Source: Eledone cirrhosa
Lineage: Eukaryota
NCBI GenBank assembly: GCA_964016885.1
Contig: OZ024741.1
Location: 175,398,001 to 175,462,000 of the forward strand
Length of the DNA stretch: 64,000 bases
Reading direction: 5' to 3'
Each line of letters starts with the position of its first letter. The first letter of the stretch is position 1. Below are positions 37,667 to 39,229 of the stretch, piece by piece. Both the position numbers and the translations under genes were made by a program. Under the pieces are notes generated by a model that searched no databases, was not told where the DNA came from, and saw nothing but the letters and a program-made list of their open reading frames with translations.

Positions 37667-37874
37667 TATATATATATATATATGTATATATATATATATA
37701 TATATATCTATATATCTATATATATATATATATTTAGAAACACACAGATACATGCGGACGCACACATATATACATGAACGCATCCGCACCCAACTGTGAC
37801 TATCTCCCCCTCCGCCTTTTGGGATTCTTTCTCACGTCGTGTAGACGCGTTCTTGAGACTAGTAAAATGAGGTA

Positions 37875-37962
37875 TCCTCTTGATAAGTCGGCAGACCTCG
37901 CAAGGACTCTATATCTTTGATATATTGTTTTTGTTTATGCCACGAAACTACGTAGTCGAGGA
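37875..37962 (+). ncRNA. Hammerhead ribozyme, family E (U3-A8 core variant, long stem II)
   Basis: tcctc TTGATAA gt-c-ggca...tgcc-ac GAAA CTACGTAG TC gagga; GUC site at C37957. Confidence 0.85.
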
Positions 37963-38465
37963 ATTTAGGAACAGTTTAGGTATGATACATTTTATTACTA
38001 ATTATATCTAAATGTTTCTTCTCTCTTCATAATGTATTTTTAACTCTGATACTGGTTCAGTCTAGTTCAAACTGAATTGGTCTGTCCCAGTCATTCATTG
38101 AGCAACATCGGTGAAGTTGGCACCCTTAACTCACAGTTGGGTGCGGATGCGTTCATGTATATATGTGTGCGTCCGCATGTATCTGTGTGTTTCTAAATAT
38201 ATTAATAACTCCCTCTGGTCGAGCAATCTTTGAGGTGTGGGGACAACTGGAAAGCTTCCATTACTCATACTTCTCGCCTTCTTCACTACCTCTTCTACGG
38301 CCTCGATATGAATACCCCCTCCGCCTCCGTGGTATTTTCTTCGTGGTTATAAGAGGCTTAGCTCTGTTTCTCGACCGTTATATCGCGTGACTATCTCCCC
38401 CTCCGCCTTTTGGGATTCTTTCTCACGTCGTGTAGACGCGTTCTTGAGACTAGTAAAATGAGGTA

Positions 38466-38553
38466 TCCTCTTGATAAGTCGGCAGACCTCGCAAGGACTC
38501 TATATCTTTGATATATTGTTTTTGTTTATGCCACGAAACTACGTAGTCGAGGA
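38466..38553 (+). ncRNA. Hammerhead ribozyme, family E, second tandem copy
   Basis: Same sequence; site C38548 lies 591 nt from the first. Confidence 0.85.
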
Positions 38554-39229
38554 ATTTAGGAACAGTTTAGGTATGATACATTTTATTACTAATTATATCT
38601 AAATGTTTCTTCTCTCTTCATAATGTGTATATATATATATATATATATATATATATATATATATATATATATATATATATATATATATATATATATATAT
38701 ATATATATATATATATATATATATATATATATATCTATATCTATATATATATATATATATATATATATATATATACACGTTAGAAGTCACTTATTGTAAT
38801 CACTTTGTTACAGAACCTTTTTAGCAAAAATATATAATGTATATATATATAATCATGTACAAGCGGTCTCTAAAATAAGGCCAATACAATTTGGTATATT
38901 TGCTTTGCAATTATCTAGAGATTTTTGCGTAATAAAAACTAATAGATACACAATACATATGATTGAAAATACCGATGTAAGTATTTCTGATATAAATAGA
39001 AAGCCTTAGATGTTTTAAGGGATGGCCTCTTCGAACGCAGTTAACCCGATTGCTATTATTCCTACTCGGGTTATTGACCATGAAGAGCTGTAGACGATGA
39101 GAACGATATCAATGCATTAGCTTGTGTCATGAATTATTTTATGTTATATTTATTAACATGTATACATCAATATATCGATAGCAAGTCGATATTTATGTTT
39201 ACAAAAACACACACACACACACGCGTGTA

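Follow-up and report, generated by a model that had tools for sequence, protein, structure and literature searches.

A young non-coding hammerhead repeat of Eledone cirrhosa bears marks of Penelope insertion and of probable RNA editing

A 64,000-nucleotide stretch of the Eledone cirrhosa genome (GenBank assembly GCA_964016885.1, contig OZ024741.1, positions 175,398,001 to 175,462,000 of the forward strand; hereafter the window) carries an insertion of a tandem hammerhead repeat that is here designated family E. Family E is a young, abundant, non-coding repeat. We consider it probable that this 591-bp repeat is spread by a Penelope reverse transcriptase (RT) and endonuclease, supplied in trans, that copies circular monomer RNA into a (TA)n break from both DNA ends. 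With somewhat less assurance, the genome can be read as a fossil record of two-ended rolling-circle reverse transcription by Penelope enzymes on one sense RNA circle, made by the ribozyme and edited by ADAR, with start sites 165 nt apart; heritable change in this non-coding replicon, itself long-lived, would then come mainly from host RNA editing.

Anatomy and abundance of family E

Positions 37796-38035 of the window recur exactly at 38387-38626, a 240-bp direct repeat at an offset of 591 (831 bp, or 1.41 units), and the GTC triplets of the locus end at 37957 and 38548. The original prediction, made from the sequence of the window, of two identical hammerheads 591 bp apart in a unit present 1.4 times was thus borne out. 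Missing from that first reading were the two fixed ends of the insertion and an inverted arm of 72 bp, positions 37728-37799 being the exact reverse complement of 38131-38202. Both flanks of the insertion consist of (TA)n. The features of family E in the window are as follows.

37665..37727, no strand: (TA)n target, left side
37728..37799, minus strand: inverted arm, monomer bases 245 to 174, with its outer end at the 245 site; overlaps the plus-strand arm by 4 nt
37796..38626, plus strand: main arm of 1.41 units (monomer 430-591, 1-591, 1-78), with its outer end at the 80 site
37875..37962, plus strand: hammerhead 1, type I, with the U3-A8 core at 37880-37886 and the palindromic stem III at 37947-37956; predicted cut after 37957
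37958..38548, plus strand: 591-nt monomer, the predicted circle
37980..37985, and also at 38571, plus strand: splice donor GTATGA at monomer base 23, likely used by the transcript of another copy (one contig)
38030..38037, plus strand: fixed outer-end site 1 (monomer ~80), a putative start of reverse transcription directly 3' of a long hairpin
38195..38202, plus strand: fixed outer-end site 2 (monomer ~245), a putative second start 165 nt past site 1 and directly 3' of a second hairpin
38466..38553, plus strand: hammerhead 2, identical to hammerhead 1; predicted cut after 38548
38628..38775, no strand: (TA)n target, right side
59094..60016, plus strand: second family E insertion in (TA)n, with one arm running from monomer 344 onward and ending at the 80 site

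The second insertion (59094-60016) lacks one stem I G in its first hammerhead.

The 3.0-Gb host genome is rich in microsatellites, and microsatellites dominated repeat finding over the whole window. An exact hammerhead pattern matched 6,572 times genome-wide and its reversed control not once, showing that the pattern does not occur by chance. The first 100 hammerhead matches formed 49 clusters, which by rough extrapolation corresponds to about 3,000 insertions, and a DNA search with the unit returned 609 candidates, the 40 that were scored being mostly 99-100% identical and often tandem. Within an array, an arm can hold up to six full units. Units of 580-596 bp with similar ends also occur in older subfamilies, at about 80% and about 73% identity. 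The longest ATG-initiated frame on the circularised monomer encodes 75 amino acids, and the monomer gave no tblastn match at E<=1 to five Penelope proteins of the same genome. Together with the near-identity of the family copies, these results agree with the earlier description of a recent, non-coding unit of the retrozyme type.

The hammerhead is of type I, with a stem I formed by TCCTC and GAGGA, a TTGATAA core in which U3-A8 replaces C3-G8, a GAAA segment, a bulged 6-bp stem II extended by a hairpin of about 45 nt, and a 10-nt palindrome as stem III. As an Rfam scan of the window gave no hits at the gathering score, the family E hammerhead included, the call rests on our own scan and on the match to the published Penelope minimal hammerhead (PMC4209133). 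The monomer, of 42% GC content, folds with a z score of -6.9 relative to 100 shuffles. The stem III palindrome forms no hairpin by itself, and the predicted duplex of two copies has an energy of -12.9 kcal/mol. In the predicted fold of the circle a neighbouring hairpin captures the 3' strand of helix I, and adopting the active fold would take about 9 kcal/mol. Such energetics would make cutting more likely while the RNA is being transcribed and would keep the product stable later. The activity of the ribozyme is itself a prediction. Its core bases are kept at 26 of 26 positions across three subfamilies, compared with 70-75% elsewhere; this conservation was set aside as evidence because the subfamily loci had been found through the hammerhead.

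Fixed ends and the Penelope connection

Eighty-four stretches were mapped: 2 in the window, 29 best-scoring hits of the DNA search, 40 from a single chromosome, chosen by position, 9 near a splice acceptor (described below) and 4 others. Eight of the nine around the acceptor hold no family E copy, and the E-bearing stretches number 76 in all, none counted twice. Ends were counted on arms of at least 90% identity only, in 46 two-armed and 32 one-armed insertions (78). The outer ends were located at monomer base ~80 or ~245 and joined to (TA)n in 119 of 124 cases, and 41 of the 46 two-armed insertions had one end at 80 and the other at 245 (one of the 41 being a local duplicate). The inner ends of the arms vary, with an overlap usually of 0-7 nt. 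A Poseidon-like autonomous element of the same genome, which served as a control, had two fixed ends 40 nt apart in 9/9 two-armed insertions. Published Penelope insertions combine inverted 5'-truncated arms with a 30-40-bp tail at one end (PMC8557442; PMC3846280). The tail was traced to two internal start sites in PMC11167929, where the Penelope protein cut both strands of AT-rich DNA in vitro and started at two internal sites. The end pattern of family E is this two-start-site signature of Penelope, with the putative start sites further apart, at 165 nt. Together with the Poseidon-like control, the pattern indicates that a Penelope enzyme very likely inserts family E, and we have little doubt that the repeat is non-autonomous and Penelope-mobilised.

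At one locus (L004:1200-1262 and 3537-3594), the flanks of the insertion are mutual inverted copies around (TA)n, as if it had landed in the middle of a palindrome. Junction oddities at L147:5877-5909 and L070:5202-5264 comprise one inner end that starts precisely at the cut site and shows a short duplication, and another with a short unit several times over, resembling template slippage.

No join of family E to an open reading frame (ORF) was found in the 76 E-bearing stretches (78 young insertions) or in 50 loci of older subfamilies, and we therefore read family E as a non-autonomous element, not as an observed pseudo-long terminal repeat (pLTR). Penelope fragments do occur nearby in L047, L066, L058, L129, L156, L166 and L169, with (TA)n between them and family E. 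It had been suggested that the unit might be a tandem Penelope pLTR, in which case it would always form the terminus of a coding element; no locus examined had this arrangement. That the unit is a pLTR or a deletion product of an extant autonomous Penelope, its arrays being by-products of transposition, also appears very improbable in general. Such an origin would account for the Penelope-type hammerhead, for the splice donor just after it and for the two-site ends; pLTRs have retrozyme relatives in frogs, and only about 130 of the thousands of family E insertions were examined for ORF joins. Against it stand the lack of any ORF-joined copy at these loci, the relaxed hammerhead pattern, which matched only the family E lineage among 100 listed of 286 matches, and the two autonomous families checked, one abundant and Neptune-like, the other young and Poseidon-like, neither of which has sequence in common with the unit. 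The older subfamilies, moreover, have the same unit and ends, arguing that the unit has long replicated on its own. A search with the site-1 motif gave 2 matches, both of them family E copies. The choice originally posed between a retrozyme and a Penelope element was a false one: the unit is non-coding, yet it carries the insertion marks of Penelope, and its hammerhead is of the Penelope type.

The loci L203-L214 (e.g., G000:C2:200826978-200837880) hold a very young, intact Poseidon-like Penelope with a 900-codon frame and a 3,127-bp unit, its copies 98-99.9% identical and arranged as head-to-head arms in (TA)n; its product is a candidate enzyme. A scan of this family for the standard hammerhead found none. 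The abundant Neptune-like Penelope (L073-L102; ORF of ~758 amino acids) bears a hammerhead-like motif of its own ahead of the ORF, and its 3' region is long and resembles a microsatellite. Both clade names, Neptune-like and Poseidon-like, are presumptive assignments that we made from sequence motifs.

The template and the origin of shared variants

The variant counts cover 66 insertions, out of roughly 3,000, whose identity was 96.5% or more; arms below 96.5% and two local duplicates were left out, and 55 of the insertions cover some base more than once. In these 55, 146 variant events were present in every unit, 8 in some units (mosaic) and 94 in one unit. Seventy-eight fixed events were at sites covered in both opposed arms, and both arms exceed one monomer in 12 insertions. 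After removal of 5 variant sites with reversed polarity in older subfamilies, sense-strand A>G accounted for 22 of the 44 polarised fixed changes and T>C for 5 (binomial p = 7e-6 given base counts), whereas the 94 single-unit variants included 6 A>G and 14 T>C (fixed versus single-unit A>G, Fisher p = 1e-8). A 5' G was depleted at fixed A>G sites (1/22 versus 27/112) and a 3' G enriched (9/22 versus 15/112). In the neighbour preference of ADAR, G is rare on the 5' side and common on the 3' side. Eight A>G changes occur in every unit of both arms of L070, three of them seen in none of the others among 77 insertions. No A>G excess was seen in the autonomous Poseidon-like element (6 A>G versus 7 T>C sites), arguing that the bias in family E is not a general error of these enzymes, and because both arms carry sense-strand A>G, the template appears to have been a sense one.

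The edits enter only as whole-array changes, indicating that one sense-strand unit was repeated exactly. A circle is the simplest template to give such repetition, and in our judgment a predicted circle was probably the template. Two linear templates were considered and rejected. A linear cut monomer should cause 5' ends to pile up at the cut site, and they did not: arms stopping there gave 14 matches, versus 17 at control base 12 (a second cut-site control, with 94 matches, was confounded by an older subfamily and not used). End-to-end jumps between linear monomers left no junction scars, the unit junctions being clean, with 4 differences in 187 crossings, under the median elsewhere.

We propose the following course of events. 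A copy with at least two hammerheads would be transcribed in the sense direction, of which there is a hint. Through the palindromic stem III, two hammerheads would then form a dimer whose cutting frees a monomer, as their structure predicts. Ligation would close the monomer into a circle, in whose fold the ribozyme is hidden, and the circle would be partly edited from adenosine to inosine, as the scars in the DNA suggest. The two ends of a (TA)n double-strand break would prime at bases 80 and 245, one each, giving the end pattern that we observed. Both enzymes would run around the circle, and their cDNAs would join by microhomology into the head-to-head arms seen in the genome.

Several points weigh against the copying of an edited circle by Penelope enzymes. 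The main caveat is that the fixed variants may be inherited from unsampled homogeneous source arrays, which would shift the one-unit bottleneck back a generation without removing it. No RNA circle or cleavage product was observed. The hammerhead was dispensable for insertion in vitro, and no RNA reads ended at the cut (PMC11167929); Penelope minimal hammerheads cut poorly in vitro (PMC4209133), and 8 of 9 frog retrozyme dimers failed to cut. Covariation is modest, at 9 of 135 predicted pairs (raw count). Five of the 46 two-armed insertions break the end rule: one with 80/80 ends, a local duplicate, has a junction in common with a neighbour, another is truncated at the edge of the locus, and the remaining three are irregular. 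The 8 mosaic variants are mostly in adjacent units. Finally, the driving element was not found, either among the two autonomous families or through the relaxed hammerhead and site-1 motif searches.

Some of these points would suit a rival account in which Penelope mobilises the non-autonomous repeat by copying long transcripts that come from homogeneous source arrays and stay uncut, the hammerhead being weak or rarely active and no circle serving as template. The in vitro dispensability of the hammerhead and the low activity of its motif class favour this account, clean junctions and the lack of stops at the cut site fit uncut RNA equally, and one spliced contig apparently runs through a hammerhead copy. 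An edited linear multimer should, however, give unit-specific A>G, whereas A>G is in excess among the fixed variants and not among the single-unit ones. In addition, several long arrays (L070, L142, L147, L150) are each filled by a haplotype of their own, which indicates that bottlenecks of one unit, with exact repetition after them, have occurred on many occasions. We regard copying from uncut arrays as unlikely.

Hardly credible, to our minds, is the insertion of single units that were then expanded locally by unequal crossing-over or conversion, a model discussed in bioRxiv 10.64898/2026.07.22.740005. The mosaic variants agree with it, as do L057 and L152, each a local duplicate of an entire insertion, but opposed arms have insertion-specific variants in common (the 78 fixed events), the sense-strand A>G bias of the shared variants is not expected from DNA-level change, and the longest arrays are among the youngest copies. 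Some duplication or conversion did take place after insertion, as the mosaic variants attest. Those in L064, L144, L145 and L151 are common to adjacent units, three of them being C>A, a pattern that local conversion or duplication may have produced.

Transcripts, relatives and neighbouring elements

The sequencing data comprised 6 runs of unrecorded kind from 3 studies. In two of these runs the unit made up one contig, 621 or 620 nt in length (the unit plus 30), a result expected from a circle and from tandem DNA alike. One contig, from run X6, departs from the unit at base 22 through an AG/GT donor and then follows, with 1 mismatch, a single genomic site. This site is preceded by a pyrimidine tract and AG and lies 3.7 kb downstream of a sense-oriented copy (L133:5624-6263; L071, G000:C22:8275624-8279925). 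This one contig suggests a spliced sense transcript in which a family E copy gives the 5' exon to a downstream unique exon.

Family E appears to work like a metazoan retrozyme of the kind without long terminal repeats (non-LTR), with which it has most of the tested features in common, cleavage and circle being predicted. Such retrozymes (PMC7229834; bioRxiv 10.64898/2026.07.22.740005) likewise form many dispersed arrays of non-coding units in tandem, each unit having one type I hammerhead, a GC content below 45% and no LTR features, and Penelope dependence and a circular intermediate have been proposed for them. The canonical retrozyme hammerhead of the 2020 definition, with its short helix II and loop 1-loop 2 contacts, differs from that of family E, which has U3-A8 and a bulged, extended stem II; the definition in the bioRxiv preprint also admits minimal hammerhead motifs. 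The unit of 591 bp exceeds the ~300-bp monomers of PMC7229834 but falls within the 51-972 bp of the preprint, so that the earlier claim of a length beyond that of animal retrozymes is not supported. Published retrozyme RNA circles were shown by northern blot, whereas the evidence for family E comes from DNA. Fixed ends, opposed arms and editing scars are features of family E not described in the available portions of either source. The element class itself is already known, and family E departs from retrozymes in its Penelope-type hammerhead and its long start-site spacing.

Penelope-like elements of the endonuclease-bearing (EN+) type (PMC8557442; PMC3846280; PMC11167929) resemble family E in several respects: their 5'-truncated arms are both tandem and inverted, only one end is extended, the targets are (TA)n or AT-rich, joins are by microhomology, and there are two internal start sites. 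Their ORF, encoding RT and GIY-YIG between pLTRs, is absent from family E in the loci examined, and the start-site spacing of 165 nt contrasts with the published Penelope tail of 30-40 bp and with 40 in the co-resident element. Head-to-head arms were attributed in PMC3846280 to self-priming on an antisense template, whereas a sense template is indicated for family E. The U3-A8 hammerheads of Cercyon from Schistosoma mansoni resemble that of family E in their 5-bp helix I, their bulged helix II with G10.1-C11.1 and a palindromic helix III predicted to act as a dimer (PMC4209133); the ~45-nt helix II extension and the short tandem non-coding unit set family E apart.

More-than-unit copying from a circular template is proposed in PMC4209133, and the idea that Penelope elements and retrozymes are copied from circular RNA dates from 2014 (PMC4209133) and 2020 (PMC7229834). 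Family E provides a DNA-level test of such a template, as RNA edits mark one template molecule, its strand and the number of rounds copied. It also offers an RNA that is short and defined and on which two putative start sites are mapped, along with intact candidate enzymes in the same genome, and it would represent a case in which RNA editing enters the germ-line genome through a mobile element. We found no report of these end and editing signatures in a literature search whose coverage mostly excluded subscription journals and the supplements of PMC7229834 and bioRxiv 10.64898/2026.07.22.740005. The main text of an Octopus repeat annotation does not mention ribozymes.

Other hammerhead families are present in the window at 47088, 46525 (minus strand) and 32092 (minus strand), and elsewhere a two-armed 310-bp hammerhead array is found beside a family E copy (L054:4990-6512). 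A broken piece of a Penelope-type RT, with a weak RVT_1 match, occupies 42176-43141 of the window (minus strand) and has kin in L047, L125 and L166. Pieces of other non-LTR retrotransposons lie at 13488-16910 (minus strand), 19332-21496 and 22469-23649; from their motifs, we take these to be L1/Tx1-like and R4/Dong-like.
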